Below, one piece after another: positions 43,684 to 64,000 of a DNA stretch of 64,000 nt. Numbering within the stretch: position 1 is the first letter of the stretch; every line of letters begins with the position of its first letter. The notes beneath the pieces are model-generated. The model saw nothing but the letters and a program-made list of their open reading frames with translations, did not search any database and had not been told where the DNA came from. A program made the position numbers and the translations under genes. Source of the stretch: Bythopirellula sp. (GTDB taxonomy: Bacteria > Planctomycetota > Planctomycetia > Pirellulales > Lacipirellulaceae); NCBI GenBank assembly GCA_965216565.1, contig OZ244170.1, positions 640,001 to 704,000 of the forward strand. Direction: 5' to 3'.

Positions 43684-45120
43684 TTAGCCAAGGCACTTCT
43701 TCAGTAACATTTCGAGCTCTTGATCTTCCTTTGAGTCGATGCCTAGCAAATCGATGTATAGGTTGCCTTGCTTAATATGCCCGACCACTGCTGGGGTTGC
43801 CTGGCGAAGTTGCTTGGACAGCTCTTCAGTTTGCATCGAACTTGATAATGGTTTGATTTCCATCGCCCAACTATCAATTCTGTTTCCCGGGAGGGCACCC
43901 CCGCCGGCGTAGCCTTCGCTCTTGCAAGGCGAAATATTCCATTGCGTGGTGACGGTTGATAGCCGAGTTGCCAGGATCGTCGCACGTTCTTCGAGCTTTG
44001 TGATTGGTGTTCGAATCAACTTTAGAAACGGAATCTCGTCATATGCCTCGGGAGCCGATAGGCCGCGCCGATAAATTGCCAGCGTTGCCTGGAGGGCGGC
44101 GAGTGTCATCTTGTCGACCCTCAGAGCCCGACTCATAGGATGCCGAGCTAACTGCTCAATGCAATGACGCTTGCCGACAATTATGCCGGCCTGCGGACCA
44201 CCAAGCAATTTGTCGCCACTGAACAATACTAGATCTGCACCTTGCTTGACGCTTTCCGTTACCAAAGGTTCTTTAGAACCAGAGAGGGTGGAGAAGTCGG
44301 CGAGCGCGCCGGAGCCTATGTCATGAATCACTGGGAAGTCACGATCTTTGGCGAGGGGGACGAGCTCGTCGAGTGCCACTTGCTCGGTAAAACCGACCAC
44401 TTGGTAATTGCTAGTGTGGATCAACATCAGCGCACCGGTGTGCTCGTTGATAGCAGCTTCGAAGTCTTCCTTACGCGTTCGGTTTGTAGTACCAACGGCA
44501 CGAAGTTTCGCACCATAGGCGCGAAATACGTCTGGGAGACGAAAGCCGCCGCCGATTTCTATCAACTGGCCGTGGGATACGACTAGTTCTCTCCCAGTAG
44601 CAAATGCTGCCAATACCAGTCCAGTTGCACCGGCATTGTTGTTGACCACCATTGCGGCTTCAGCGCCCGTTAGTGCGCAAAGATCTTCTTCCAGTAACTC
44701 GTGGCGTCGGGTTCGATTGCCTGTGGATAAATCCAACTCTACATTGCAATAGCCTGCCGCCTGAAGCACAGCGTCGATGGCCTGCTGTGGCAAAGGAGCC
44801 CGGCCCAGGCCAGTGTGAAGTAGAATTCCTGTTCCATTGATAACGCGACGAATGACCGATTGTTCGTGCAGTTCTAAAATAGAGAGCACTTCGCCAACCA
44901 GTTCCTCAAACACTGGCAACTGGGCAGACTGCTTGTGCACCAACCGAGTTCGCCAATTGTGGAGGCAGCTTCGCGCCGCCTCCAGCACAAAATTCCTCCC
45001 ATACCGCTCGGCTGCCTCGCACAATTTGGCAGCTAAGAGCAAATCGTGGACGCTTGGAAGTTGCCTCCGGAGATCAGACTCACTAGCAGTATCAGACTTA
45101 GCCGACGTAGGTCGTGTCAT
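43684..45120 (-). CDS. selA: L-seryl-tRNA(Sec) selenium transferase
   Basis: VINGTGILLHTGLGRAP, VNNNAGA, EIGGGFRLPD, VGTTNRT, PLP-lysine motif FSGDKLLGGPQAG, RALRVDK. Confidence 0.96.
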   Translation of the reverse strand: MTRPTSAKSDTASESDLRRQLPSVHDLLLAAKLCEAAERYGRNFVLEAARSCLHNWRTRLVHKQSAQLPVFEELVGEVLSILELHEQSVIRRVINGTGILLHTGLGRAPLPQQAIDAVLQAAGYCNVELDLSTGNRTRRHELLEEDLCALTGAEAAMVVNNNAGATGLVLAAFATGRELVVSHGQLIEIGGGFRLPDVFRAYGAKLRAVGTTNRTRKEDFEAAINEHTGALMLIHTSNYQVVGFTEQVALDELVPLAKDRDFPVIHDIGSGALADFSTLSGSKEPLVTESVKQGADLVLFSGDKLLGGPQAGIIVGKRHCIEQLARHPMSRALRVDKMTLAALQATLAIYRRGLSAPEAYDEIPFLKLIRTPITKLEERATILATRLSTVTTQWNISPCKSEGYAGGGALPGNRIDSWAMEIKPLSSSMQTEELSKQLRQATPAVVGHIKQGNLYIDLLGIDSKEDQELEMLLKKCLG

Positions 45121-47083
45121 TGGATCCTTCTGGAAGTGGATTCGGTTGAATTAGGACTCTCACGTCTCCGATTCGTTTCGAAATTCCATTTTGGTCCAGA
45201 TAGCCACACAATGGAATCGCGTACTTTCGGGAAACTTCAAATGCCTCGCAGAATTGGCTAAGCGTCCACTGAGCATGCTTCTCCAGTCGCGGACCTAACT
45301 GCTCGAGGAGAAACTGTTTAGCTGTCTTGTGCAGATGCAGCCGGGCCCGTCGTGCGGCTTTTGCGCCACGAGAATCTTTATCTGGCAGTCGGACGAGTTC
45401 CCCCTGAATGACGGCAAGCTCTAGGAGGAGTTCTACGTCCTCCAGTTCGAGAGACAATTTGTCGGCCAATTCAGAAGCAGTTGGCGGAGTGAGTGCTGCC
45501 TCGTTACAGGTATCCAGAATTGTAGAAAGGTTCTCCTTTTGATGCTCAGAGAGCACCGGCTGCCAATCGGGTAGGGCCACCTGTGAGAAGTCAAACTCTA
45601 GCTGCCCCAACTCTCTGAGAAGATTCGCCAGTTGATCTATCAATTCTGGAGGATCGATCATTTTGAAATAAGAACGAATCTTGCTGAATGGAATGGTAGA
45701 TCGCGCCGGATTCTTGTCATGTTCTTTTTTTACAGATTCTAGCAGCCTTTTTTGCAACTGGTTGACTGTGTCGCGATGCAACCATCGACTATTGCTCTTT
45801 AGCTCGAAGCGGTAAAGCACGCCTTGGAGTTCCAGGTCTTTCAGTTCCGATTTGCAATCTGCCGCTCCAGAGCGGAGGGATAGTTCCTCTTTCGTCCAGG
45901 GAAGAGTTCCCGAAAGCGCAGACAGAGCAGCAATTCGCTCGGTGTCCGAACCATCTTGCAACATAGTGAGATGGGCCTGCTTCTCTTTGTCGCGAAAGTT
46001 AATGCGTGGGGCAGCTGGATCAATAATTCTACCGCCGCCGATCACATGGTTTTCCGTCAAGCTGCGTATGACAAATGCTTCACCCCAGGTAGTACTGACA
46101 GTTTCCTTCAAAAGCAATTGACCAACTTGGGATTCGCCCGAGGAGGTTAGGAGTTCGCTAGGGAGTCTTAGCAAGCCTACTGTTTCCGAGGTGCCGCTGT
46201 AGAAGCGAACCTTGGTGCGAGGCTTGAGAATACGGCTAGATACTGGGCTCGCCTGGAAATCAATAGATAGAATTTTGCTCGAGGCGATGCTCCCTGGCGT
46301 AGCAAGAATGTTCCCACGCTGCAACTCCGTGTAATGGACTCCTGCCAGATTTAGCGCGGCCCGCTGCCCTCTGCCGGCCCTGGGCAAACTTTGGCCATGG
46401 CCTTCAATACTTCGGACCGTCACGACCTTGCTGTCCGGAAAGACATGCAGCTTTTCACCACATGCTACTTCTCCGCTCGCCACGCTACCCGTAACAATCG
46501 TGCCGTGTCCTGGTGCAGTGAAGCATCGATCTATGGGCATTTTGAACTGGCCTTGTAACTTGCGAACCGGCAAGTCCTTGGCAACGTTCGCAAGCGTACA
46601 ACGCAAATTATCTATGCCTGAACCGGTTTTGGAACTAACTTCTAAGATGTGGGCATCTTGGAGAAAAGTGCCTGCGACCAAACTAGTCACATCTTCACGA
46701 ACTAGCGAGATCATGTCCTGGTCCACCAGATCAGACTTCGTGATCGCAATCGCCCCAGCTTGTACCTGCAAATGCCGGAGCACTTCAAAATGCTCGGTTG
46801 TCTGCAGCATCACGCCTTCGTCGGCGGCAACCACCAGCAGCGCCAGATCAATACCTGTCGCTCCGGCGAGCATGTTCTTCACGAACCGCTCGTGACCAGG
46901 TACGTCGACTACCCCCAGCAGCAAATCTTCGTACTCAATGGCCGCGAACCCCAAATCAACGGTCAGTCCCCGTCGTTTCTCCTCAGGTAGCCGATCAGTG
47001 TCGGTGCCGGTTAGCACTTTGATCAGCGAGGTCTTGCCGTGGTCAACATGACCTGCCGTGCCGAGTAAGAAATGTCGAACCAT
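45098..47083 (-). CDS. selB: Selenocysteine-specific elongation factor
   Basis: [45 protein letters not shown]-terminal winged helix [14 protein letters not shown]. Overlaps the selA start by 23 nt. Confidence 0.96.
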
Positions 47084-47221
47084 AGGAATTTAATACTAAT
47101 TCTGCAGCCCTGATTGATCAAAGCGGCCAGTAGGAAACACGCACCTGTCTAGGTTATCATACAACCTGAAGCCAACAAGGAACACTGAACGCTGGCATTC
47201 GCAGGCCGAGCAAAAAAATTC

Positions 47222-49432
47222 TTGAACACAACACTTCCAACTCACGAAATCGTGCTCCTTGGTGCAGGGCATACAAACTGCCATATCATTCGCAAGTGGC
47301 GAATGAACCCGATTCCCGGTGCACGACTCACATGTGTTTCTGATCAACCGATTGCTGCTTATTCTGGAATGCTGGCAGGCACGCTTGCAGGGCAGTACGA
47401 GCAGCAAGAAATGCAAATCGATTTAGTGCGATTCTGTGCTGCCTGTGGTGTACGCCTCGTAGTCGCAGCGGCTACTGGACTAGAACATGAGAACAAGCGG
47501 GTACTGCTAGAGGATCGGCCGGCTCTCGATTACGATCTGTTGTCCATTGGTGTGGGGTCGCGTCCCCTTATTCCACTTGACGACAATATCGGTCTCTCGA
47601 TCAAGCCGATGCAAACCTTCATGAAGCGTCTGACGGATCGAATTGGCTCGGTCGCTGCTCAAAAACCCCAAGATCCAATCGATATAGTCATAGTCGGGGG
47701 AGGTGCTGCAGGAATCGAAATTGCGTTCTGCTTAGAGACCTTTCTGCGTAACCCAGGCGCAGGGAACTCACACTTTACCATTACATTGGTTGAAGCCGCG
47801 AATAGTCTCTTCAGCGAGAGCACGCAGCGGGCGCAACTGCTTGCTCAAAAAGAGTTAACGCAGCGCGGGATTCGAGTATTACTTGATTCGAGAGTTGTAG
47901 CTCACGAAGGAAGATCAGCACTGCAGCTCGAAGGCGGCGAACATCAGCCTTTCGATATCCTGATTTGGGCAACACCGGCTACCCCGCCACGGTTGTTCGA
48001 ATCGTTAGGATTGCCAAAAGACGATCGTGGTTTTCTGCTAACCAAGAATACTCTGCAAAGTACGGGAGCAGATGATGTGTTTGTGGTCGGGGATTCGGGT
48101 TCTGTGCTTGGTGAGCAATACGCCAAGGCAGGAGTGTACGCCGTTCGCCAAGGCCCCTTCCTCTGGGAGAATCTCCGCCGCAAAGTACAGGGCGAATCTT
48201 TGAAAGCTTGGCGTCCGCAATCCCAATTCCTTTCCTTGATCAATACGGGCGACGGCAGTGCCGTCCTTTCTTATCGGTCTCTTGCAGTGCATTCCCCTCT
48301 TGCTTGGAAGCTTAAGGACTGGATCGATAGAAGGTTCATGGCAAAGTACCAGGACTACAGCCCACCGCAGATGATGGCTACGTCAGAGAACTCTGCGGCT
48401 GAGATCAAGCAACAAATGCAGTGCGGCGGATGTGGAAGCAAGGCTTCTCCGCAAGTTCTACAGACGGCGTTGCCAATGCTGAATCAGGCCCAGCACGATC
48501 ATGTTTTGATGGGGCTCAGCAATCTAGACGACATTGCCCTGATCGCCCAACGCGAGGGGAGAGCGATTGCTGCTTCGACGGACTTCTTCAGTTCGTTTGT
48601 CGACGACCCTTTCCTGTTGGGGCGTATTGCAGCACAGAACGCGTTGAGTGATTTGTATGTCAAGGGAAGCAGCCCTAGGGCGGCTCTTTCGATGGCAGTC
48701 CTTCCTCACGGTTCGCCGCAGAAGCAAGCGGCTTTGCTCGATGAACTCTTGGCAGGTGCCGGACGTGAATTCCAGGCGGCGGGCGTTCCCATCGTTGGTG
48801 GCCACTCGATTGTAGGGCCTAAGCTTACCTTTGGATTCACGATGTTAGGAGACGCTGAGCCTGAAGGTGTTCTCCGCAAGTCTACCCTTCGAGATGGAGA
48901 CTGCCTGGTGCTTACTAAGGCACTGGGTACCGGTGTTTTGCTTGCCGCTCACATGCGTGCAGCTTGCCGAGCTGAGTGGTGGGGACCGCTCGTCGATTCC
49001 ATGCTCACTAGCAATGAACAAGTTTCCCAGCTCGCTGCACAATTGCCGGTGTCTGCTGCCACAGATGTCACCGGGTTTGGCCTTGCCGGGCATCTACTGG
49101 AAATGCTAGCCCCGGCGGACTTATCGGCAGAGATCTCATTGAGCTCGTTGCCGCTGTTACCCGGAGCGGGTGAGTTGTTCCAACGCAACTTCGAGAGCAG
49201 CCTTGCCCCTAGCATCAGGGATAGCTGCACAAGGCTAGAGACTTCCGAGGACCTTCGCGACTCGTCACTGCTGGGGATTCTTTTCGATCCACAAACCTCT
49301 GGTGGTGTTTTAATGGCCATACCGGAGGTCCATTGCGAAACGCTGCTGTCGGAGTGTGAAGGTGCTGCTACGCGGATTGGACGGGTCGTACAAAGAGGCC
49401 CTGGAGGATCGACTCTCGAAGTAACGCCGTAG
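47222..49432 (+). CDS. selD: Selenide, water dikinase fused to an N-terminal pyridine nucleotide-disulfide oxidoreductase domain
   Basis: N-domain LLGAGHT, YSGML, VGGGAAGIE, VGD, KAGVYAVRQG. C-domain CGGCGSK, DD, STDFF..DDP..GRIAA.NALSD, GGHS, LTKALGTG, TDVTGFGLAGHL, DPQTSGG. Confidence 0.95.
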   Translation: MNTTLPTHEIVLLGAGHTNCHIIRKWRMNPIPGARLTCVSDQPIAAYSGMLAGTLAGQYEQQEMQIDLVRFCAACGVRLVVAAATGLEHENKRVLLEDRPALDYDLLSIGVGSRPLIPLDDNIGLSIKPMQTFMKRLTDRIGSVAAQKPQDPIDIVIVGGGAAGIEIAFCLETFLRNPGAGNSHFTITLVEAANSLFSESTQRAQLLAQKELTQRGIRVLLDSRVVAHEGRSALQLEGGEHQPFDILIWATPATPPRLFESLGLPKDDRGFLLTKNTLQSTGADDVFVVGDSGSVLGEQYAKAGVYAVRQGPFLWENLRRKVQGESLKAWRPQSQFLSLINTGDGSAVLSYRSLAVHSPLAWKLKDWIDRRFMAKYQDYSPPQMMATSENSAAEIKQQMQCGGCGSKASPQVLQTALPMLNQAQHDHVLMGLSNLDDIALIAQREGRAIAASTDFFSSFVDDPFLLGRIAAQNALSDLYVKGSSPRAALSMAVLPHGSPQKQAALLDELLAGAGREFQAAGVPIVGGHSIVGPKLTFGFTMLGDAEPEGVLRKSTLRDGDCLVLTKALGTGVLLAAHMRAACRAEWWGPLVDSMLTSNEQVSQLAAQLPVSAATDVTGFGLAGHLLEMLAPADLSAEISLSSLPLLPGAGELFQRNFESSLAPSIRDSCTRLETSEDLRDSSLLGILFDPQTSGGVLMAIPEVHCETLLSECEGAATRIGRVVQRGPGGSTLEVTP

Positions 49433-49526
49433 CCGCCCGCAGTGAAAAGCGTATATTGAATTGGTTGGCCATCTTTTGTGGCCAGAAGCGATGACTCGGC
49501 ATCAGCCAAAGTAGCAGTGATCGTCC

Positions 49527-49623
49527 GGAAGTGCGAGCCGACCTGGTGGCGGCCACGGTCTTCAAAACCGTTGTGCGGAATGACAAAAGTTTCGCAGGTG
49601 GGTTCGATTCCCATGCACTTCCG
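49527..49623 (+). tRNA. selC: tRNA-Sec (anticodon UCA)
   Basis: 97 nt, 8/5 fold. Acceptor GGAAGTGC/GCACTTCC with G discriminator; D-loop TGGT; anticodon arm ACGGT-CTTCAAA-ACCGT (TCA at 49562-49564); 8-bp variable stem; T-arm GTGGG-TTCGATT-CCCAT. CCA not encoded. Confidence 0.96.
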
Positions 49624-49847
49624 CTTTGCCCGCCAGAAGCTCGTGAGTTAACTGGATATCTCACAGGGGCATAGGCGTCACGGAACAAAAGTAGTAGGTG
49701 ATGAACGACTCGAACAATCTGCTAACACTCCAGGAATTACAGAATTACCCAAGAGCTGCGCTGCAGTGGGTCTGCTAGACGAGACTTTTCGCGGCAGATT
49801 GACGAAAGAGGATGTATCCAACCTCTTGTATCTTTCCGGAATCAAAT

Positions 49848-51161
49848 CTATTCCATCTCAATCCGCTCTAGACTGCCTACCAAAAAGACGTAGCTCAGTG
49901 CCGCCGTTAGAGTGAGCGAGCTGATAAAGATGAGAGCGGGGGCGAAACTGCCGTCTTTGACAAGGTGTCCGATCGCTGCAGGTACGATCATTGCAGAAAG
50001 TCCTCCGATAAAGTTGAACGCCCCACCCGTGAGTCCAACCAGTTTCTTGGGTGCCAGTAGCGACACAAAAACCCAGGTAATGGATGCCAGCCCATTACCA
50101 AAGAAGGCCAGTGATAGAAAAAACGTCACCCAGAATGGGTCAGTCACAAAATTGGCCCCGATCATACTTGTCGAGAGCAACAAGCCTGTAACGACCGGTA
50201 CTTTGCGCGCTACATTGGGATTCACATTTCTCCGCACGAGAAAGTCCGATAGCAACCCAGAGAGCAAGATTCCCACAAAGGCACATAAGAAAGGAACGGA
50301 AACGGCTACGCCCGACTCCAAAAAATCCATGTCTTTGTAATCTTTTAGATACTTAGGGAACCAAGTCAGGAAAAAGATGAGTGTGGCCCCTAATCCAAAC
50401 TGGCCGATGTAGATGCCCCAGAGCTTTCTTTGGCTGAGTACGAACCATAGATGGCTCCATTGGAACGGTTCGCTTATTTCGTTGTCGTCCTGCCCCGAAC
50501 CAATTAGACCTCCCCCAGCTTCGATGAGGGCGATCTCTGCAGCGTTCACTCGCGAGTGTTGTCGTGGGTCGCGGTAGAAAAAGTACCAAAATATGCCCCA
50601 TGCTATCCCAATGCCACCGGTGACGTAGAAGAGCGCCCGCCATCCCAGATAGTGTTCCATCGCCAGTAAGGCTGGGGTCATGAAAGCCAATCCAATGAAT
50701 TGCCCCGAAGTGTAAGTTGCAATAGCTCCCGCTCTTTCGTTGTCGGGGAACCAATTTGTGACAATTCGGTTGTTTAGAGGATATGAAGGTGCCTCGAAGA
50801 TGCCAACGCACACACGAAGCACAAAGAGCAGAATGAAACCTGTGGCAAATCCTTGAAAGAAGGTTGCCAGTGACCAGAGGATTAAGCAGACACTGTAGAA
50901 TCCTCGATTTCCGAACCGGTCGGCCAATATCCCTCCAGGGATTTGACAAAACGCATACGTCAGCCCAAAAGCAGAAAACAAATAGCCCATTTGCACAGAA
51001 TCTAGGGCCAGGTCTTTGCTGAGGAATGATGCCGCCACAGAAATGTTACTGCGGTCCATGTAGTTAATCACTACATTAACAAAAATAGCAACAAGAACCG
51101 CGTATCTTGCTTTCGTCGGCTTCTCGGCCCGAACCGGGCTGCCGCTTTGCTCTGTTACCAT
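49848..51161 (-). CDS. dgoT: MFS anion:cation symporter, D-galactonate transporter-like
   Basis: INYMDRSNISVA, QIPGG.LADRFG, EAPSYP.NNR.V..WFP..ERA, YIGQF..FFLTWFP.YL. Overlaps the dgoD stop. Confidence 0.82.
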   Translation of the reverse strand: MVTEQSGSPVRAEKPTKARYAVLVAIFVNVVINYMDRSNISVAASFLSKDLALDSVQMGYLFSAFGLTYAFCQIPGGILADRFGNRGFYSVCLILWSLATFFQGFATGFILLFVLRVCVGIFEAPSYPLNNRIVTNWFPDNERAGAIATYTSGQFIGLAFMTPALLAMEHYLGWRALFYVTGGIGIAWGIFWYFFYRDPRQHSRVNAAEIALIEAGGGLIGSGQDDNEISEPFQWSHLWFVLSQRKLWGIYIGQFGLGATLIFFLTWFPKYLKDYKDMDFLESGVAVSVPFLCAFVGILLSGLLSDFLVRRNVNPNVARKVPVVTGLLLSTSMIGANFVTDPFWVTFFLSLAFFGNGLASITWVFVSLLAPKKLVGLTGGAFNFIGGLSAMIVPAAIGHLVKDGSFAPALIFISSLTLTAALSYVFLVGSLERIEME

Positions 51162-52303
51162 TCGGCCACACTTCCGTCGTCATGCCGCCATAGCGGATTA
51201 CGCCAATTGTGTCCCTGAGCAGCTTTTTCGCGGACAGTCTCTTCATTCACTTCTATGCCCAGTCCCGGTCCGGTTGGGATTGATACGGAGCCGTCGACAT
51301 AATTGAATACAGTCTTGTCAGTCAGGTAGTCCAATAAATCGTTATCTTGGTTGTAGTGAATGCCCAGACTCTGCTCTTGAATAAATGCGTTGTAGCAGGT
51401 TGCATCGATTTGCAAGCAAGCCGCCAAAGCAATCGGACCCAACGGACAGTGCGGTGCGGCCGCCACGTCATACGCCTCTGCCATGGAAATGATCTTCTTG
51501 CACTCTGTTATCCCACCCGCATGCGAAACATCGGGTTGAATGATGTCTACGGCCCCGCCGGCCAGTAGTTCCTTAAAATGCCAGCGGCTGAACATTCGTT
51601 CGCCGGTGGCGATAGGGATCGAGGTGAGGTTAGCAATTTCTCGCAAGGCCTCATTATTCTCAGGTAGCACTGGCTCTTCGATGAACATTGGATGAAACAC
51701 TTCCAGTTCCTTGGCCAGCACTTTAGCCATAGGCTTATGGAGCCTGCCATGGAAATCGATTCCTATGTCGACCGCGAATCCTACTGCATCGCGAATGGCA
51801 CCGACACGCTGGAGAACCCAATCAATTTTTCGATGGGTATCGACGATTTGCATTTCGTTGGTGCCGTTCATCTTCACTGCAGTAAACCCAATCTCCTGGG
51901 CCTCATGCACTGCTTTCGCGAGATCTGCCGAGGTATCGCCATTGACCCAAGAATAGACTTGAATTTTCTCGCGGGTTTTACCCCCCATGAGTTCGTAGAT
52001 AGGTACGCCAAATTTCTTCCCTTTAATGTCCCACAGCGCTTGATCAATGCCAGACAACGCACTCATGAACACGGGGCCACCGCGATAGAATCCACCTCGA
52101 TAAAGAGTATTCCAATGGCCTTCAATATCCGTAGGGTCCTGGCCGACGAGCGACTCCATCAATTCGTCGACCGCTGTTTTGACTGTATCCGCTTTGCCCT
52201 CAACAATCGGTTCTCCCCAGCCAGTGATGCCTTCGTCGGTCTCGACTTTGAGGAATAACCACCGAGGAGCGACCTTGAAGAGTTCGTAAGCTACGATTTT
52301 CAT
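51155..52303 (-). CDS. dgoD: Galactonate dehydratase (enolase superfamily)
   Basis: PRWLFLKVETDEGITGWGEP, YRGGFYRGGP, KMNG, DFHGR, FIEEP, TGER, APHCPLGP, QEQSLGIHYN, W..P.WRH.DGSVAEW; 382 aa. Confidence 0.93.
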   Translation of the reverse strand: MKIVAYELFKVAPRWLFLKVETDEGITGWGEPIVEGKADTVKTAVDELMESLVGQDPTDIEGHWNTLYRGGFYRGGPVFMSALSGIDQALWDIKGKKFGVPIYELMGGKTREKIQVYSWVNGDTSADLAKAVHEAQEIGFTAVKMNGTNEMQIVDTHRKIDWVLQRVGAIRDAVGFAVDIGIDFHGRLHKPMAKVLAKELEVFHPMFIEEPVLPENNEALREIANLTSIPIATGERMFSRWHFKELLAGGAVDIIQPDVSHAGGITECKKIISMAEAYDVAAAPHCPLGPIALAACLQIDATCYNAFIQEQSLGIHYNQDNDLLDYLTDKTVFNYVDGSVSIPTGPGLGIEVNEETVREKAAQGHNWRNPLWRHDDGSVAEW

Positions 52304-52319
52304 GGAAAACTTCCTGCCG

Positions 52320-54089
52320 CTAGAGATCTAGCCTTTCGACATCTACAAATAAAGGGCCCGTAGCTAGTCGTTCAATCTTCAAATATGCATGGAAATTGCC
52401 TACGCCTTCAGGAAGCTCAACTTGCTGAAAGACTACTTTGGGTTGTCCCTTTTTTACTGGTGCTCTTAGGTGGACGTCTTTGAATTTGAGATGGGCAACT
52501 CCATCTGATTCGAGTGGAGGTAAATCGAGAGACACTTTGTATGACCCTCCCTCAACTCTCACACGCCAATGCCCGAGTTCATTTTCGGAGAGGACACGAG
52601 GTCCTCCCCAATCAAAACGGGAGAGGTTGACTCTAGGTTGGTCTTTGCTGCCTAAGTAGATTCGCTGAATACCTTTGGCATCACGCTCTTCGGTTACCTC
52701 GTCAAACCAACTTTCGTATCTGGCGAGCAGATTGTCGACCATCTCAGGATGCTCCTGGGCCACGTTGATTCGCTCGCTCGGGTCGTTCTCAACATCGTAG
52801 AGTTCCAAGGCAGCCAGAGTCCTCTTTAGCTCCTCATCGTCCGGCTGAAAGAGGATGTGATGAGGATCGTCGTGTGGGCTGACTAACTTAAACTTCTGAG
52901 TCCGCACAGCGAAGTGCATGTACTTAAAAGGGGTTGGGCCGTAGTGCATCTGGATATGGAATGCTCGTCCTTTATAGGGCTCGGATTCACCATTCCACAT
53001 AGGCAGTAGCGACATGCCATCCAATTTGGTGTTCTGCGGCGGTTTTATCCCGCACGCTTGGAGTATTGTGGGAAGCACATCGATTACCGTTCCCATCGTG
53101 CTATTCTTGACACCACTTGGCAACTTCTTCGGCCATCGCACGAAAAAGGGAACGCGAATTCCACACTCATAAACGCTTGTTTTTGTGCCTCGCAAATTGG
53201 CGACCCACCGTCCAGGATATACATCGTTCTTCGTGCGCCGATGCCGAGGTCCATTGTCGGAGAGGAATATAACAAGCGTATCGTCTTCCAGACCCAATTC
53301 TTTGAGCTTGTCGAGCACGCGACCAACGTTGTAGTCGATGCTATCGATCATGCCATAGGTCCGTGCATTATCCTCATGGAGACCCAATTGGCGATAAGGC
53401 TCTGCAAGTCGATCAGGCACTTCAAGGGGAAAGTGAGGTAGGTTTGTAGCTACGTAGGCCAAGAATGGTTTGTCGTCATTCTTGTTTTTGGTGATAAACT
53501 CCATCGCGGCGTCGGTAAAGATATCGTCGCAGTAGCCTTTAAACTTCTTGGGCTGATTGTTGTGCTCTAATATGGGATCAAAGTATGTATTCCCAGCGGG
53601 GCCTGCATCTTGTCCAATCCCGCCCCCCTTATGAACAAGTGCCTCTTGAAAACCTTGGTCGGTTGGCCGCATCGGACAATTATCCCCCAAGTGCCACTTG
53701 CCAAAAATTCCTGTTCTGTAACCGTGGCTTGATAAGATCTCTGCGATGGTAATTTCCGAAGCATTCATAAAGTGATCGACTTGTGTGACGGCCGTCACTC
53801 CCGTGCGATAAGGATATCTCCCTGTTAGGAGCGCGGCGCGAGTAGCTGAGCAATTGGGGTAGGCAAAGAAATGCGTCATTTCGAGCCCCTGTTCGCCAAT
53901 CGATTCGATGCGTGGAGTCTTTAGATGGGGGTTGCCATGAGCCCCAAGGTCTCCGTAGCCCTGATCGTCTGACATCATGATCACGATATTGGGCTTGGTT
54001 TGTGCCCACAGAACTTGGCCGACGCATGCCGTCGCTAGTGCCGCACAAATAGTCAGAGTTCGCATAATGTATTTGTGACTAGTTGTCAT
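52320..54089 (-). CDS. Secreted formylglycine-dependent sulfatase (S1, arylsulfatase-like)
   Basis: Signal peptide; PNIVIMMSDDQGYGD; variant motif CSATRAALLTGR; GKWHLG; SDNG; extra C-terminal beta domain. Confidence 0.92.
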   Translation of the reverse strand: MTTSHKYIMRTLTICAALATACVGQVLWAQTKPNIVIMMSDDQGYGDLGAHGNPHLKTPRIESIGEQGLEMTHFFAYPNCSATRAALLTGRYPYRTGVTAVTQVDHFMNASEITIAEILSSHGYRTGIFGKWHLGDNCPMRPTDQGFQEALVHKGGGIGQDAGPAGNTYFDPILEHNNQPKKFKGYCDDIFTDAAMEFITKNKNDDKPFLAYVATNLPHFPLEVPDRLAEPYRQLGLHEDNARTYGMIDSIDYNVGRVLDKLKELGLEDDTLVIFLSDNGPRHRRTKNDVYPGRWVANLRGTKTSVYECGIRVPFFVRWPKKLPSGVKNSTMGTVIDVLPTILQACGIKPPQNTKLDGMSLLPMWNGESEPYKGRAFHIQMHYGPTPFKYMHFAVRTQKFKLVSPHDDPHHILFQPDDEELKRTLAALELYDVENDPSERINVAQEHPEMVDNLLARYESWFDEVTEERDAKGIQRIYLGSKDQPRVNLSRFDWGGPRVLSENELGHWRVRVEGGSYKVSLDLPPLESDGVAHLKFKDVHLRAPVKKGQPKVVFQQVELPEGVGNFHAYLKIERLATGPLFVDVERLDL

Positions 54090-54182: not shown

Positions 54183-56069
54183 CTACTGAGCCGGCTTATC
54201 TGTTTCAAACCTTGAATTCACCTTGCTAATTGAAGAATTGAGGATCTTCCCGTTAGTCCAATTAACGCGAACTTCAACGGGCCCCTCGTCTTCTCCTATT
54301 CCAAAATGAATGGAAGGGTTGAGGCTCCGGGAGTATGCGGCGCCGGACGATCCTACACGGCAAACCTTCTTCCTATCGCCATATTTGATAGATGCGGTAG
54401 CCCCCAAGGCCGATGCGGCTCCAGTTGGCGATTCGGCCACATCAATTTGAACGTAATTATTGCCGGTCGAACTTTGATTGCGATACAGATGCCATTTGCC
54501 GCGCTCATCACCAGTGAGAATATCAACTCGACCATCGCGGTTGTAATCGAGAGTCTCTACTCCCAAGCCGATGGCACCGAGTTCTGAGGATGCAATCTGA
54601 TGACGTGCGAGGGGAGTGAACTCAGTTCCACCCTGGTTGAGGCAAACGATCGCTGAATTTGTGTGGACGAGGTCGCCGCGACGAATGATTACAAGGTCTG
54701 AATAGCCATCGTTGTCGAAATCGGCGACCGCTGCCCCGGTGGTGTGCTGATTAGAGTGAAGATTGAGACGTTTACTCACATCTACGTAGGCTCCCTCTCT
54801 ATTTTCCAACAGGATGTCCCCAGGGCCCGGTGGATGGTCATATTTTTCATAGAACTTCACACCGCGCACAATCCCTGAGCTCGGGGCCCACATGTCACCT
54901 GCGAGACGCCATTTGTTGTTGCCTACGTAACCAAGGTAAGTCCCTTTCTTGTCAATACTATCCGGCCAGCCCAAGGCATCGCTGTTAACCATTCTGACAT
55001 CTCGACCAGAGTGAGTTTCGCCGGGAAACTCATATTCGTATGCGGATTCTCCGAGGTACAATTGCTTATGTGGCCATTGCGATTGGAGATTCTCGATGTT
55101 CAGCACATCACCAACCGCTAGATCTTCGAATCGGAAAGGTCCGCGTTTTGTAAAGAACCCCCATGTGTGCGTTGCTTCGTCGTAGAACGTTTCGCCGGCC
55201 TCAAATTCTTGCCCGCGAGTGAGGAATAGATCGAAATCTCCATCGTTGTCGTAGTCGATTTCAACGATGCAGGTCACGTGCTTGATAACAGGTATCACAG
55301 CGTCGGTGACTTCCTCAAAAGACAAATCTCCCCGGCCTTGGAAGGCTCGTACTCGGTCGTTGCCATAGAGAAGAAGGTCGACCACACCGTCCCCATTAAT
55401 ATCAGTTAACAAGGTTTTTTGACCGTCTTGTTTTACCGGAGGTAGGGTATCGGTGAGTTCGAAGTGCCCGCTGCCATCGTTTCTGTAGACGTAGTTTTCA
55501 CTTGTGCCTTTGTTCTCACGAGACGGGAAAGCAAAGTTCAATAGGTCGAGATCGCCATCCTTGTCACCATCAAAGAGTTTTACGGTCCGGCCTCGCATTC
55601 GTTGCAAAGGGAGAGCGAGCTCTGGCACCTCAGTAAATTCTCTTTGATGTGTCACTCGAAAAATCTTGGCATTGCGGGCATTCTCGCCGGCTCCCCCACC
55701 GCGGGAGATCACAATCTCGTGATTCCCATCCCGATCGATGTCGCCGATAGAAATTCCATGCAAATCGCCCATGATCAGATCGTAGGGCTTTGCAAATTTC
55801 CCTTTGTTGTTCCAACAAATTCGTACCCCAAAACCGTGGTCATTTAGCAGGAGATCAACGAATCCATCCTGGTCCAGATCTGCCACGACGGGTGCATCCC
55901 ATTTTCGCAAGTTTTTCTCTTCCCTAGGGAAGTCATCAAGTGCTTCTTCAAAATGGACCGCTTCATTGCTTACTACAGAGTCGTCACTAACAGTATTCGA
56001 GCTCAGACAGAGCGGTAGAAACGATGCCGATAAGATTGTTATCAAGAGTTGTGTGTGTTTTCGAAGCAC
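54183..56069 (-). CDS. Secreted FG-GAP/VCBS repeat protein with ASPIC/UnbV C-terminus (CRTAC1-like), paralog 1
   Basis: Repeats DLDQDGFVDL, DIDRDGNHEI, DGDKDGDLDL, DINGDGVVDL, DYDNDGDFDL, DFDNDGYSDL, DYNRDGRVDI; C-terminal ALGA..IHFGIG..V.WTNG. Confidence 0.85.
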   Translation of the reverse strand: MLRKHTQLLITILSASFLPLCLSSNTVSDDSVVSNEAVHFEEALDDFPREEKNLRKWDAPVVADLDQDGFVDLLLNDHGFGVRICWNNKGKFAKPYDLIMGDLHGISIGDIDRDGNHEIVISRGGGAGENARNAKIFRVTHQREFTEVPELALPLQRMRGRTVKLFDGDKDGDLDLLNFAFPSRENKGTSENYVYRNDGSGHFELTDTLPPVKQDGQKTLLTDINGDGVVDLLLYGNDRVRAFQGRGDLSFEEVTDAVIPVIKHVTCIVEIDYDNDGDFDLFLTRGQEFEAGETFYDEATHTWGFFTKRGPFRFEDLAVGDVLNIENLQSQWPHKQLYLGESAYEYEFPGETHSGRDVRMVNSDALGWPDSIDKKGTYLGYVGNNKWRLAGDMWAPSSGIVRGVKFYEKYDHPPGPGDILLENREGAYVDVSKRLNLHSNQHTTGAAVADFDNDGYSDLVIIRRGDLVHTNSAIVCLNQGGTEFTPLARHQIASSELGAIGLGVETLDYNRDGRVDILTGDERGKWHLYRNQSSTGNNYVQIDVAESPTGAASALGATASIKYGDRKKVCRVGSSGAAYSRSLNPSIHFGIGEDEGPVEVRVNWTNGKILNSSISKVNSRFETDKPAQ

Positions 56070-58006
56070 TATTGGGTGTCCTGACTCACTGGAGTAACCT
56101 CTGCTCGGCCCACGCCTCTTTCCATGAGAGACTGGAGCTGATCAAGATATAGACTGTAAACATCTCGCGGTGTGCAGCTATGTTTTTTGCAGATAGAGGC
56201 TGCCATTCCGACCACTTCACCCATCATTCCGCAAGTTCGCATCACTCGCACTGCACCAAGTCCGCTTTGAGTGACGCTGATGTCTCGTCCTGCCATGAAC
56301 AAATTGTCGATGTTTCGACTGTAGAGACATCGGTAAGGCGCCCAATAAGGACCCTCGTAACGATACTCCTTGCCACGAGTGAAGGTAGAGAAAAAAGCGT
56401 CTTTGTCGTCTTGCTCGAAATAGTCTGGATGCGGAGCATGAATATCGATATGCCAAGTGCATGGGAACGCAGCATCTTCAAACACGGTCCCATTGCGAAA
56501 GTCATCTGCGGTTAGCACCACATCGCCCATCAAACGACGCGATTCTCGCTTGCCCGCAATAAAGGCTGCCCACTTCAGGCGGTGATTGGGAAACCGGCCG
56601 TCGACGTTCTTGAGTGTGTCCCACGCGCCATACATTGCTCGCAGGTTGAGGTCTCTAATTCTCTCTCCGTCAATAAACGGATCATCATTGAATCCCGACT
56701 CCCAAAACCAGGTCCCCAACTGTTTGTTTCCAGTTAGATTGAAAGTCTTCTGCCGGTGTCGTCCCGGGAAATCGACGTCGCTCAAGTCGACTGCCCACGG
56801 GCAACGAGGAAAAGGTTGAGGCTTGGCGGCAGGAGTGAAGTTGAGCGATAAGGTATCCTCAAAGTCTTCGCACAGACATTTTAGCTCGTGCTCTGTCTCT
56901 TCGGTTTCACCGAAGTCCCAAAGATTGGTGCTGCCCATGCGGCCCTTTTCAGCCAGTTCAAAGTCTGCACCAACAAGAGCGCCAAGTACGCCATCACCAG
57001 TAGAATCGAGAAACCAACGTCCCCGGATGCGTGTCCTGCGACCCGTGCGAATGTGTTGGGCCACTACCGAGATTATCTTTCCATCGGATTGCTCGGCTTG
57101 ATTAACGCGCTGCTCTAACAGCAGCGTTAGATTCGGCTCTGCTTGAGCCAGCTCAAGCTTGCGAAGATCGTCAAATGTCTTGTGTCCCTTCGGGTCCGGA
57201 TGGTCTTTCAATTTGCTGTAAGGAGCGATTTCGTTGACGACATCTCCCACCCGCGGATAGGGTTCATGGTTGGTAAAACCCTCGGGCCAGACTCTCACTT
57301 CGCTGCTGCCGTTGCCTCCCAGGACTGGGCGGTCTTGGATTAGCGCCACGTTCAAGCCTAATCGGGCTGCGGTAATGGCGGCACTCGTTCCTGCGATGCC
57401 TCCGCCCACTACGACTAGGTCGTACTTGCCGCCGTCACGTGACTCACTGTCCCAACCAAGGAATTTGCTCCGCAATGCCTTTAGTTCTTCGTCACTTTCA
57501 GGGGGGAGAAAGTCTTTCGCTTTGGAAAATAGAATGGCGTCGCAACGACCTTCAAATCCGGTGAGATCGTGAATTGCTAGTGTGGCTTTCTCACCAAGCT
57601 GCACCACACCTCCTTCCTGCCAGTGCCACTTAGCGCCTTCGGTGCCGAATATCTGTTCCAAAGGAACATCGTCAATAAGAAGTTGAAATCGCCCAGGTGC
57701 TCCAGATGCATCCCATGGTGCCACCCAATCTCGCGTCCGTACCCATACTCGGTATTCTCCAGGCGAGGGCACAGAGACTACAGTCCTGCCATCGGGCACA
57801 GGAACCCCCAGGCCGTGAGCAAGAACGAAAGGAGAGCCCATCTGATCCATGAACTGTTGATCGACGACCCAGCCTCCTAGGTCAGCAAATGATTCTGCTT
57901 CGACCAATATATGTTCGAGGGTCTCGTCAGCGTACGCACCTGCCGCACTTAGAAGGGCAATGCCAACAGATAGTTTCTTCAAAATGCTAGTAGCTACTGT
58001 GTACAT
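56069..58006 (-). CDS. Secreted FAD-dependent oxidoreductase with an N-terminal beta-sandwich domain
   Basis: Signal peptide; YDLVVVGGGIAG..AARLG; QDRPVLGGN.SSE; DSTGDG; GKRESRRL.GD; PYRCLYSRNIDNLFMAGR.IS; RVMRTCGMMG. Confidence 0.85.
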   Translation of the reverse strand: MYTVATSILKKLSVGIALLSAAGAYADETLEHILVEAESFADLGGWVVDQQFMDQMGSPFVLAHGLGVPVPDGRTVVSVPSPGEYRVWVRTRDWVAPWDASGAPGRFQLLIDDVPLEQIFGTEGAKWHWQEGGVVQLGEKATLAIHDLTGFEGRCDAILFSKAKDFLPPESDEELKALRSKFLGWDSESRDGGKYDLVVVGGGIAGTSAAITAARLGLNVALIQDRPVLGGNGSSEVRVWPEGFTNHEPYPRVGDVVNEIAPYSKLKDHPDPKGHKTFDDLRKLELAQAEPNLTLLLEQRVNQAEQSDGKIISVVAQHIRTGRRTRIRGRWFLDSTGDGVLGALVGADFELAEKGRMGSTNLWDFGETEETEHELKCLCEDFEDTLSLNFTPAAKPQPFPRCPWAVDLSDVDFPGRHRQKTFNLTGNKQLGTWFWESGFNDDPFIDGERIRDLNLRAMYGAWDTLKNVDGRFPNHRLKWAAFIAGKRESRRLMGDVVLTADDFRNGTVFEDAAFPCTWHIDIHAPHPDYFEQDDKDAFFSTFTRGKEYRYEGPYWAPYRCLYSRNIDNLFMAGRDISVTQSGLGAVRVMRTCGMMGEVVGMAASICKKHSCTPRDVYSLYLDQLQSLMERGVGRAEVTPVSQDTQ

Positions 58007-58020
58007 AGATCGAAGGTGGG

Positions 58021-59917
58021 CTATTCGAATTGCCCCGCGCTAAAACTCTTGTTGATGGTGTTTATTTGAAGACTCTCTGTCTCTCCATTCGTCCATCTTA
58101 CAATCGCGCTATCGATGGTCTCACAATTACCGAGGCCCACATGGAGGTGGTTGTTTGCGCTATGGGAGTACGCTGCTGAGCTGGCTCCCACGGTACGTCG
58201 ATAGATTTTGCCGTCGGCTTCGAGTGTTAACATAGCTCCCTGCATCGGAGCCTCATTGGACGGTGATTTGCCAACTCTTATGACAACGTAGTTGGAACCC
58301 TCTGAGAAAGAACTCTGGTTCGTGAATAGATGCCAACGTCCTCGTTCGTTGCAGTAAATTAGGTCTAGATCTCCGTCACCATCGTAATCGAATGCCTCTG
58401 CACCTCCTCCAGTTGAACCAAGTTCTTGTGAGACGATGCCATGCTGCTGAGTACGTTGAAAGTACTTGCCATTCTGGTTGAGATACAGGATTTGTTGGTT
58501 CTGCGATGCGGGATTTCCTTGACGTACAACAAATAAGTCCGACCAACCATTGTTATCGAAGTCTCCTGCAACGGCGCTAGTGGTTTGCTCTGCTATGGAA
58601 ATACCCAATCGGGATGTAACGTCGACAAAAAATCCATCACGATTTTCCCACAACTGGGCAGGCAACTGCTTGGGTTGGGTCACTTGTGGATGGGACTTCA
58701 CGTTGTGGATGACGCCCGCGGTGGGAGACTTTGTATCGACCTTGATTCGCCAGAGGTCATTTCCTAGGTATCCGATGTAGAGCCCTTTGTCGCTCAGATC
58801 AGATGGCCAACCTTCTGACTCCTCGGGCTTAAGGGTGAAATCCTTGTGTCCATGACGGTCGACGGCGAATTCTAGTTTTCTTTTGTTAGCCCCGACAAAT
58901 ACATCGAAGTGGGGAAAGGCCATTTGAAGGTTCTCGAATATGAAGTCGCCCTCAATTTCCAAATCTTCGAAGAGAAACTCTTTGAACCGCATAAAAAAGG
59001 CAAACCGCGAATGTTCTTTGTCGTAGTGGGTCTTTCTTTCAAACGGATGATCTGCGCGAGTTAGAAACAGATCGTAATCACCATCGTTGTCGTAGTCGAT
59101 TTCCGCAATGCTACTAACAAAGCTGGTATTTTCGAGATTCGGTAACACCTCGGCAGTGGCGTCAGAGTAGGCGAGCCCCGTCTCTCCTCGGACGGCGACC
59201 ATGTTGTCTCCACCGTAGAAGATCAGATCAGAATCGTCGTCATTATTGAAATCTGTAACCAGCGTCCTAAAGCCCATCCACTTCGCCACAGGAAGCTTGG
59301 TAACAAACTCGAATTCTCCCGGTCCGGTGTTCTTGAATAGGTCGTTCGCTCCTTGAGTTTGTGTCTTGAGCGGAAAAGCGGAGAGGACAAGATCGAGAGT
59401 GCCATTGTTATCGCCGTCAATAAACTTAACTGCCCTGCCGCGCGAACGCTCGAAATGGGCGAACTCTTCGCCCCCCTCGATCGTACGATCACGGTTAACT
59501 TGAAATGTTACAGGATTGCGGGGGTTCTTGCCGTCACCGCCACCACGAGAAACGATCAGATCGATGCGGCCATCCTGGTCGTAGTCGCCTGCAGCTACTC
59601 CGTGCGTATCGCCCTGAACGACATCTACCGGCTGGGAGAATGTGCCGTTGTCGTTCCAATACAAACGAGCGCGATAGGAGTGATCTGTAAGTAGAAGGTC
59701 TAAGAGTCCGTCTTGATCCAGATCGGCAACTAGCGGATGATCCCACTTACGCCTTGAGCGATCTTCCAGCGGTATGACTCCCTCCACTTCGCGAAAAGTG
59801 ACCGAGGAATCAATCAATGACGAATCAGCACTATCAACCGCCGCTAGGGGTCCAGCAGATAGAATTACGATGGTGCCAAAGGCAATCGCAGATACAATTC
59901 GTCCGCTGGCGAACTTA

Positions 59918-59943
<26 letters not shown>
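58021..59943 (-). CDS. Secreted FG-GAP/VCBS repeat protein with ASPIC/UnbV C-terminus (CRTAC1-like), paralog 2
   Basis: Same seven Dx[DN]xDG repeats and HVGLG..WTNG terminus; collinear with paralog 1. Confidence 0.85.
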
Positions 59944-61534
<1,591 letters not shown>

Positions 61535-61570: not shown

Positions 61571-63553
61571 TTACCACACGATGGGGACAAACACTGTCAT
61601 CTCGGCGAGTCCCCGATTACTCCATGCAAAGTAAGGGACCAGTTCTGTTTTGTATTTTTCCCACTCCGGCTTACTTACGGTGTGGTACATCCCCTTCGCC
61701 TGATCTCGACGCAGCAATAATTCTCCACGAATCGTGGAGACGCCTCCTAGGAAATCGGGGCGATGATTCACTTCCAACTCTGCATCTCCAGATAAATAGA
61801 CATCCAAGATCGAAGTGTCTTCAGGCAAATCGGGCGATTCCACACAATAGACAATTGGCCCGCGCTTGATAGCGACCTGATTGCGCACCTCTTCGATACG
61901 GGGATGGCCTTCGACGAGGTGGATACTCATTGGCATTACGATAGTGATCTCATCGCCCGGTTGCCAAGTTCGCTCTAACCTTGCAAAAGTTCCCGGAACA
62001 ACCTCTGTAATAAGATCCTGGCCGTTGACCTGAATTCGAGTTTCCTCAGCCCAAGCGGGAATACGCAGTAAGATTTCGAAGGGTGAGTCTTTGCATTCGT
62101 CAATTGTAAGTTTGACCTCGCCATCCCAAGGATAGTCGGTCTCTTGTTTCAATTTGAGTGCGGAGCCATCCAAAAGAGTCGTGTCTAGTTGATTTCCACC
62201 ATACAAGTTCACCGCTACGCCGTTGTCCGTGAGGCTGTATGCCCAGCCAGAGACCTTGGCGATGGTTCTAGCCAGATTGGGAGGACAGCAAAAACATTCG
62301 ATATAAGGTTCTCGGTCAGCCGACTCGGTGCAGTCGCAATGGTCGCTGTATTCTCGCTGCCCGTAATTCATGCGTAGCGGGTTGGCATAGAAGTATTTTT
62401 TGCCGTCCACGCTAATGCCTACCAAGGCACTGTTGTAGAGCACAAGTTCCATCATGTCGGCATACTTGGCATCGCCCTTGATACTTAGCATTCGCCAATT
62501 GAACATCGCACCGGCAATGTTGGCGCACGTTTCGTTGTACGAAGTTGAGTTGGGCATCAGGTAATCATCAACAAAACCTTCGTGCACCATATTTTGATCG
62601 TCGTAGGCTCCGTGATGCAGCTGCCCGAAGGCCCCGGTTAGATACATCTTTTTTTCGAAAGCGCTAGCCCAAATTCTGTCCAGCGATTCAGCCAATGCCT
62701 GCTCGCCCGTTTCGGCATAGACGTCAGCCGCCCCGCAATACAGATAGAAACCCGTCACTGCATGACCAACAGCCTCGGTCTCTTCGCGCAATGGAGTTTT
62801 ATTCTGGCACTGCGCCCCAGTGAACCAATAAGGAACACTCGGGTGCAATTCGACCGGTGCTGAACCTCGCATGTCGACAAATACCTCGGCAAGCTCTAAG
62901 TATTTCTCGTCTTTCGTCGTTCGGTACAACTCCACTAACGACATAATCTGCGACGGATTGAAGCCAAAACGTGCCAGCTCTTCAGGCTTTGGTTGAAAAA
63001 CTGAGTACAGATAGTCGGCATGCTTGATGGCGATATCCAGCCAATTAGTTTTGCCCGTGATGCGATGATGAATACATCCGCCAGTAATCAAGTGGCCACT
63101 ATTATAGAGTTCGTGATTTGTGACCTGCGACCAGCGCTCAAGTCCGTTGATTTGAGCATGCGTATGCAGGTAGCCATCGTCTTGCTGGGCCTGTGCGATG
63201 ACCTTGAGAATCTCGTCCAATTCGGCGACGATCTTTTGATCGTTGTTCAAGGCGTAGACGTATAGGTAGGCTTCCATCCATTTGTAGAAGTCCCCATCGT
63301 GCCAGAGCATTCCCTTGGCTTCGCCTTCCTGGAGACCAGCTGCAATCTTAAAATTGTTGTAAGCGTGTCCTACATCGCCTTTGAGAAGAGTCCCCATATG
63401 GGGCACGATCACTTCCTCGGAGAGCCTCTGTTTGTCGGCCCAAAAGCCATCGGTCCAATTGCAATCACCAAAATTGATGCTTCGGAGGCGAACATGCGGA
63501 CTCTCTGAGTTGCGCGTGATTGCACGATCATGAACAACTTGTGTTTCAGTCAT
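61571..63553 (-). CDS. Glycoside hydrolase family 127 (DUF1680), no signal peptide
   Basis: D.D.YKW.EA, HELY..GH, VGHAV, YNETCA, CFCCPPN (Zn/Cys centre), YPWDG, RIPAW, RGPIVYC.E, PYFAWSNRG. GAGGAG RBS before ATG 63553. Confidence 0.93.
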   Translation of the reverse strand: MTETQVVHDRAITRNSESPHVRLRSINFGDCNWTDGFWADKQRLSEEVIVPHMGTLLKGDVGHAYNNFKIAAGLQEGEAKGMLWHDGDFYKWMEAYLYVYALNNDQKIVAELDEILKVIAQAQQDDGYLHTHAQINGLERWSQVTNHELYNSGHLITGGCIHHRITGKTNWLDIAIKHADYLYSVFQPKPEELARFGFNPSQIMSLVELYRTTKDEKYLELAEVFVDMRGSAPVELHPSVPYWFTGAQCQNKTPLREETEAVGHAVTGFYLYCGAADVYAETGEQALAESLDRIWASAFEKKMYLTGAFGQLHHGAYDDQNMVHEGFVDDYLMPNSTSYNETCANIAGAMFNWRMLSIKGDAKYADMMELVLYNSALVGISVDGKKYFYANPLRMNYGQREYSDHCDCTESADREPYIECFCCPPNLARTIAKVSGWAYSLTDNGVAVNLYGGNQLDTTLLDGSALKLKQETDYPWDGEVKLTIDECKDSPFEILLRIPAWAEETRIQVNGQDLITEVVPGTFARLERTWQPGDEITIVMPMSIHLVEGHPRIEEVRNQVAIKRGPIVYCVESPDLPEDTSILDVYLSGDAELEVNHRPDFLGGVSTIRGELLLRRDQAKGMYHTVSKPEWEKYKTELVPYFAWSNRGLAEMTVFVPIVW

Positions 63554-63600
63554 GAGCCAGTTGCTCCTCGATTGCAATGTGAATTGGTAAAGACATCTTA

Positions 63601-63999
63601 TCAGTCTCGAGCTGATGATAGTGCGATCTGAATTTCTTCAATACTCATGTTCTTTGTCTCGACCAAAGTTAGCGCTAGGATGATCAGCCCTACAGCAACT
63701 GTCCCTGCGTAAAACAGGAAAATTGAAGTCATGCCCATGTTCTCCAATTGCCAGGGGAAAAAGAACTGTACTAACCAACTCGTTAAGCTCGTGACGATTG
63801 CAAAAAAAGGAATTGCCGTCCCACGCACTGAGACTGGGAAAAGTTCTGAAAATAAGACCCACATCACGGGGCCGACCGAGAAATGAAAAGCTGCGATGAA
63901 GCTAAGAATGCCTAGCAGTACAAGTTTGGCGTTGATGTTGATCGCTGCCTCTAAGAGCTTACTGAAATGCTTCGAGGTGTTTTCTTCACCAATTTCTTT
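63601..63999 (-). CDS. Sugar porter family MFS transporter, C-terminal part (cut by the window edge)
   Basis: Frame is open to the edge: ..LVLLGILSFIAAFHFSVGPVMWVLFSELFP..RG..ETKNMSIEEI. Confidence 0.88.
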   Translation of the reverse strand, partial: KEIGEENTSKHFSKLLEAAININAKLVLLGILSFIAAFHFSVGPVMWVLFSELFPVSVRGTAIPFFAIVTSLTSWLVQFFFPWQLENMGMTSIFLFYAGTVAVGLIILALTLVETKNMSIEEIQIALSSARD

Positions 64000-64000
64000 G

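Follow-up and report, generated by a model that had tools for sequence, protein, structure and literature searches.

The 64,000-nt stretch of Bythopirellula sp. DNA analyzed here (the window; contig OZ244170.1, positions 640,001 to 704,000) carries two genes for FG-GAP/ASPIC-UnbV beta-propeller proteins, P0003 and P0001, which flank a gene for a flavin adenine dinucleotide (FAD)-dependent oxidoreductase, P0002 (Table 1). The original prediction, made from the sequence alone, had placed these three tightly packed genes between two sulfatase genes, and the coordinates of the open reading frames (ORFs) agree with this geometry throughout. The called starts reproduce exactly the 26-nt overlap between P0003 and the adjoining sulfatase gene, the 14-nt gap and the 1-nt overlap; the second sulfatase gene starts 93 nt past P0001. 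The paralogous relationship of the propellers was borne out by Pfam, which gave five FG-GAP_3 matches and one UnbV_ASPIC match in each of them, and by their 40% identity across 617 aa; all six sequence motifs quoted for the pair were found in both proteins. PF12831 covers residues 196-626 of P0002 (237 bits). Signal peptides were assigned by eye. In the host genome, P0003 and P0001 are the sole close propeller copies (the remaining ASPIC/UnbV genes match weakly), and P0002 is single-copy. Promoter and terminator scans of the locus gave results at chance level.

Table 1. Features of the locus, with positions in the window.
Feature	Position	Strand	Remarks
Clade A propeller P0003	58021..59943	-	640 aa; H88/D112/H114/R168/R170/E533
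Clade B propeller P0001	54183..56069	-	628 aa, GTG start; H78/D102/H104/R159/R161/E522
FAD-dependent oxidoreductase P0002	56069..58006	-	645 aa; PF12831 plus extra N-terminal domain
S1 sulfatase	59918..61534	-	53-71% conserved across carrageenan loci; nearest solved structure 6HHM
S1 sulfatase	52320..54089	-	approx. 70% conserved; next to DgoD/DgoT-like genes in flavobacterial carrageenan loci
GH127, carrageenan-type	61571..63577	-	likely alpha-1,3-(3,6-anhydro)-D-galactosidase, DagA-like (PMC5698469)
Sugar-porter major facilitator superfamily (MFS) gene, 3' end	63601..64000	-
Enolase-superfamily dehydratase	51155..52303	-	putatively galactonate dehydratase-like
MFS transporter, last gene of the carrageenan locus	49848..51161	-	putatively galactonate transporter-like
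tRNA-Sec	49527..49624	+	edge of the carrageenan locus; possible integration site

The propellers belong to the CRTAC1/ASPIC-UnbV family, as indicated by FG-GAP-like repeats with DxDxDG loops, a C-terminal UnbV_ASPIC match above the cut-off and a predicted seven-bladed fold. P0003 is predicted to consist of a seven-bladed, calcium-loop beta-propeller, an inserted beta domain (approx. residues 300-425) and a C-terminal ASPIC/UnbV domain, and the same architecture is predicted for P0001. Structure and profile searches identified CRTAC1 as the nearest relative in both fold and sequence, followed by LGI1, Bap1 and integrins (the profile match to 9ETN had an E value of 2e-11). No match was found when the PDB was searched with the P0003 sequence, and an Atlas search with the inserted domain (residues 300-425) yielded no usable match. 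The best-ranked enzyme in the fold searches was the propeller domain of aldos-2-ulose dehydratase (PDB 4A7K), at 9% identity and with a Z score tied with the WD40-type background. GH127 or GH129 domains are absent from the propellers, for which the Pfam scan gave only FG-GAP and ASPIC and the predicted fold is all-beta.

CRTAC1, LGI1, Bap1 and integrins are not enzymes, which would suit galactan-binding or scaffold proteins that depend on calcium and, without any catalysis, catch galactan fragments at the cell surface or within the periplasm. Such a role would also be compatible with the domain fusions found in some family members (see below), and enzyme activity of the family is so far only predicted. 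We nevertheless consider it rather unlikely, since the conserved residues show a pattern typical of catalytic ones. Their conservation goes beyond chance. In P0003 numbering, which is used throughout, H88, D112, H114, R168, R170 and W398 are present in 47 of 47 diverse members at 25-48% identity and in every aligned row of the 70 locus proteins; position 533 is acidic in all 70 locus proteins and in 45 of the 47 diverse members. The residues adjoining this set in the putative pocket differ between clades, and the His-Asp-His/Arg-Arg residues stay constant at approx. 25-30% identity. Because the invariant set persists across the clades of the D-series (carrageenan) and the L-series (agar/porphyran), catalysis by a His-Asp-His, Arg-Arg and acid set is favored, and on these alignments we judge it quite probable.

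In the predicted P0003 fold, the invariant residues except Trp398 are placed on the face opposite the calcium loops, and the DSSP topology of the model locates the H/D/H/R/R residues and the acidic position 533 in B-C and D-A loops of blades 7-1-2-3. Since this face holds all of them but the Trp, the propellers are likely to be enzymes, presumably periplasmic and of an uncharacterized family. Of the anion-binding or catalytic pocket proposed in the original prediction, the His/Asp/Arg set, which looks catalytic, is supported. Compared with the CRTAC1/ASPIC-UnbV family at large, the propellers add an inserted domain of approx. 120 residues, the invariant H-D-H/R-R residues and a strict link to galactan loci. 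The inserted domain and the invariant set occurred together in two of 115 generic ASPIC/UnbV members, a weak control in which most N-terminal columns were gapped. Any enzymatic role of CRTAC1-like propellers on red-algal galactans would define a new enzyme family and provide the ASPIC/UnbV fold with its first catalytic members, which we regard as on balance probable.

The genes surrounding the propellers identify the locus, on sequence comparison, as a kappa/iota/beta-carrageenan polysaccharide utilization locus (PUL). This assignment follows from the presence of orthologs of the Pseudoalteromonas carrageenovora plasmid PUL genes for S1_19A (57% identity), S1_19B (54%), GH16B (70%), DauA (41%), DauB (39%) and the sugar porter, and from that of GH167 (57% to P. 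carrageenovora), which is located outside the PUL, elsewhere in the host genome. The best PDB match of DauA is 6PNU, which we take to be the Pseudoalteromonas DauA. The PUL extends from the tRNA-Sec gene to approx. 12 kb past the window, where it adds two GH16 genes, the S1_19A and S1_19B orthologs, a sugar kinase, an aldolase, DauA, DauB and GntR. It thus unites in one locus the marker set of carrageenan PULs, namely DauA/DauB, S1_19 sulfatases, a GH16 beta-carrageenase-type gene and GH127, so the candidate new polysaccharide-processing system of the original prediction turns out to be a system of a known type.

The PUL is plausibly an acquired island. Its G+C content is 0.49-0.53 (genome mean, 0.536), and the propeller pair was found in none of 60 relatives of the host genome, 26 of them congeneric. 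It ends 224 nt from tRNA-Sec, a possible integration site, which belongs to a selenocysteine cluster (43684-49624) together with selA, selB and a selD-like gene that includes a fused pyridine nucleotide-disulfide oxidoreductase domain. At the same end, a sulfatase (approx. 70% identical) and the galactonate-dehydratase-like and galactonate-transporter-like genes, presumably DgoD and DgoT, form a triplet (49848-54089) that recurs across phyla (L050, L051, L055-L056, L058) and whose substrate may be a sulfated galactonate. Past the window, a second, divergent cluster of large sulfatases and a GH16-like gene follows the PUL (G000:C1:716856-731564).

P0003 and P0001 are, judging from sequence, ancient paralogs, representing clades A and B (support for clade B, 0.997; support at the base of clade A is poor). 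Both have reciprocal best matches on the P. carrageenovora plasmid: P0003 with PC2016_RS20140 (53%), located after GH16B, and P0001 with PC2016_RS20110 (45%), located after S1_19A. The tags EU509_08825 and EU509_08870 denote S1_19A and GH16B, respectively (PMC6923384), and mapping by gene order, on which all of our links to EU509 and EU511 tags are based, equates the P0003 ortholog with EU509_08875 and the P0001 ortholog with EU509_08830; the gap at the S1_19A position is consistent with the text of that paper. Both are among the three predicted propellers that Hettle (2019) put forward as the missing alpha-1,3-(3,6-anhydro)-D-galactosidase, and the candidates could not be expressed (PMC6923384); the Pseudoalteromonas proteins were insoluble. 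In the expression table of that paper, the genes at the equivalent positions of strain U2A, EU511_08790 and EU511_08765, were upregulated on iota-carrageenan (log2 6.54 and 5.26). In the Pseudoalteromonas PULs the two propellers, likewise predicted and conserved at matching gene positions, lie apart from each other, and GH127/GH129 are absent (PMC6923384), whereas in the window they are neighbors on either side of the FAD gene, beside GH127.

The proposed tie between the propellers and sulfated-galactan loci holds well beyond this genome. Carrageenan-PUL orthologs (at least 45% identity) were present at 12 of 12 close loci of at least 8 kb, compared with 0 of 54 generic ASPIC/UnbV loci (106 control loci, of which 52 were too short and were dropped). 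Hosts of the pair in carrageenan PULs are Planctomycetota-like, Bacteroidota, Verrucomicrobiota and Gammaproteobacteria. Among 79 loci from a metagenome scan there were one clade B locus and three more distant family members (28-31%), the rest being generic. Clade A is fused to GH16 in P0079, P0088 and P0365, clade B is fused to a GH167-like domain (29%) in P0387, and some propeller proteins carry immunoglobulin-like or type IX secretion system tails. More distant relatives (approx. 30%, clade C) occur in agar/porphyran settings: GH50 agarase domains were found in seven of eight genomes that carry clade C only, and a short clade C gene adjoins a GH86 porphyranase-type gene in three of 20 fetched loci (L090, L091 and L108), with only housekeeping neighbors at several others. 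No biochemical characterization of the family was found in the literature searched, which mostly excluded subscription journals, and the propellers can be called uncharacterized to that extent. They are a genuine, conserved part of a system whose type is already known, and were foreshadowed to some degree in 2019; no printed account was found of how the family is defined, of its residue set or of the sister clades in agar/porphyran settings.

Several genes recur beside the propellers. A PhoD-like protein, possibly an unrecognized type of sulfatase, is repeatedly encoded next to them in both carrageenan and agar loci (L057:12486-14297, L062:16690-18606, L063:11621-13456, L091, L096, L100), and a multiheme c-type cytochrome recurs in gammaproteobacterial carrageenan PULs (L066:5293-7512, L072:10937-13099, L076:7609-9792, L047:26413-28548). 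The agar-type clade C loci L096 and L100 also contain an enoyl-CoA hydratase, two CoA-transferase III-like genes and an aldehyde dehydrogenase, and similar genes lie near clade A in L007-L010. In L012 (9863-11647) the clade A gene is split into three pieces and its neighbors are likewise broken, by frameshifts or sequencing error.

The distribution of the FAD gene is of a different kind. That the two propellers and the flavoenzyme form an obligate system working together, as had been proposed, is highly improbable, and we rejected the trio on its distribution. The three genes are translationally coupled in the window, and their closest homologs share the longest-contig values 33315 and 48710 in two other assemblies, which suggests local conservation in close relatives. 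Elsewhere, only two of 39 clade A/B ORFs have a PF12831 gene within 5 kb (one gene being counted twice); the identity to P0002 is 30-32%, and a sandwiched arrangement was never seen. Nearby A and B genes are separated by an MFS gene in L003 and by an SMP-30 gene in L005, and have nothing between them in L012 and L086. Full-length P0002-type genes occur in ten of 201 flavobacterial genomes, none of which is among the eight propeller carriers. Four of these eight have a different PF12831 subfamily, and six of 15 gammaproteobacterial carriers gave no PF12831 match.

The FAD family is, moreover, huge: 7982 of 8000 scored candidates matched P0002 at E values of 1e-50 or below. Its GxGxxG columns (G201/G203/G206) are invariant across 92 aligned sequences, and the closest named homologs are planctomycete proteins, some of them fused to glycosidase domains. 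A PDB sequence search with P0002 gave FAD-motif matches only, and an Atlas search only uncharacterized PF12831 clusters. P0002 is likely to be an accessory gene, a bystander to the propellers; it may encode a sugar dehydrogenase of the periplasm whose product is passed on to the galactonate transporter and dehydratase encoded at the operon's end.

The occurrence of the propellers and of known galactosidases was compared in the genomes of two families; since kin genomes are not independent, the Fisher values overstate significance. In the flavobacterial group (Tamlana and relatives, 201 genomes), clade A/B was found in eight genomes, four with both clades and four with B only. Carrageenan-type GH127 (matches below 50% not counted) was present in 13 genomes, including all eight carriers, where it lies within 5 kb of clade B. 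A GH167-family gene was found in all eight carriers (11 genomes overall) and a DauA match in six of them (nine overall). GH129, detected via PDB 5OPQ, occurred in three genomes and never together with the propellers: the 13 GH127 genomes comprise eight with a propeller only, three with GH129 only, two with neither and none with both (Fisher p=0.035). In the gammaproteobacterial group (Paraglaciecola and relatives, 151 genomes), 15 genomes carried clade A/B, 16 DauA and 14 both. GH127 was found in 11 genomes, all of them carriers (one 39% match was not counted), and four DauA-positive carriers lacked both carrageenan-type GH127 and GH129 (control G006 was positive). The predicted co-occurrence with GH127 was thus seen in 8/8 and 11/15 carriers, respectively.

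GH127 and GH129 enzymes were reported to be inactive on sulfated substrates (PMC10958521), and this leaves a niche for propellers that accept sulfate. The GH127-less carriers, the exclusion with GH129 and the link to GH167 fit, together with this inactivity, a role in alpha-1,3 cleavage. Our favored, still tentative, reading is that the propellers cut alpha-1,3 bonds behind (anhydro)galactose; their substrates would be short galactan fragments that probably retain their sulfate groups. They would share the proposed bond and pathway position with GH127 (DagA) and GH129 (DagB) (PMC5698469), whose fold and residues are unrelated; the activity of the propellers is a prediction. Calcium in the DxDxDG loops would stiffen the propeller; on the opposite face, Lys66, Arg168 and Arg170 would hold a sulfate, and His88/His114 with Asp112, and Glu533, would provide the acid/base pair, with a metal possibly at its center. 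Oligosaccharides or neocarrabiose produced by GH16 and GH167 would be split by the propellers, after which DauA-D would catabolize the freed 3,6-anhydro-D-galactose. Where GH127 is also present, as in the window, sulfated substrates not accepted by GH127/GH129 would fall to the propellers.

Several observations count against this reading: GH127 co-occurs in 19 of 23 carriers, P. carrageenovora 9T did not grow, and all four GH127-less carriers possess an SMP-30-family protein, which is itself a strong candidate, either as the missing alpha-anhydrogalactosidase or as the catalyst of a partner step. This protein, the positional equivalent of EU509_08835 (L065:16291-17397; also L057, L062, L005, L072, L074 and L076), was confined to propeller carriers (13 of 31 handles, including the four without GH127). 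A different gene set is present in G301 and G333 (L068-L071), in which DauA/DauB occur in sulfatase-rich loci with no match to GH127, GH129, propellers or SMP-30; possibly, these loci represent another route to 3,6-anhydrogalactose.

The SMP-30 protein also figures in a reading of the propellers as eliminases. The reducing-end galactose of the disaccharide would be oxidized, the lactone would be opened by the SMP-30 protein, and the propeller would take the C2 proton and expel the 3-O-linked anhydrogalactose, giving 2-keto-3-deoxy-galactonate directly. We find this the more doubtful of the two remaining specific alternatives, with some probability left for other chemistry. With a pyrroloquinoline quinone-dependent dehydrogenase in mind, pqqC was sought and found in none of five carrier genomes; the controls were equally without signal.

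The other alternative, raised in the original prediction and improbable in our estimate, is that the propellers are bacterial galactose-6-sulfurylases, in which Arg/Lys would grip the 6-sulfate and His-Asp would deprotonate O3, so that mu/nu-carrageenan or porphyran units close to the 3,6-anhydrogalactose used by downstream hydrolases. A basic pocket with a His/Asp pair would suit this chemistry, the family would be needed whether GH127 is present or not, and fusions to endo-acting GH16 as well as secreted forms would suit action on the polymer. The GH86 and GH50 associations of clade C point the same way, as 6-sulfated precursors are common to both galactan series (PMC10311240, PMC8307928). 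However, the only feature so far apparent as common to the Chondrus crispus galactose-2,6-sulfurylases I and II and the propellers is the substrate class, sulfated galactans; the sulfurylase II alignment covers 263 positions compared with approx. 600 in the propellers, and no bacterial sulfurylase was found in the literature searched. On the flavoprotein side the analogy breaks down, as the FAD gene does not follow the propellers from genome to genome. No sulfurylase was among the matches listed in the sequence and structure searches, an absence that excludes nothing.

Several carrageenan-growing bacteria lack any known enzyme for the last cut, which frees 3,6-anhydro-D-galactose (PMC6923384, PMC6952198, PMC6262041). 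Two of the PMC6923384 candidates are now placed in a cross-phylum family with six residues named for mutation, with clades that track carrageenan and agar/porphyran and with many alternative orthologs on offer for expression. The tailoring of carrageenan and agar gels would also profit from an alpha-galactosidase that tolerates sulfate or from a sulfurylase of bacterial origin. If the propellers are enzymes, clades A and B (carrageenan) and clade C (agar/porphyran) may be the alpha-anhydrogalactosidase that has long been missing from GH127-less bacteria or, alternatively, the first galactose-6-sulfurylases from bacteria.

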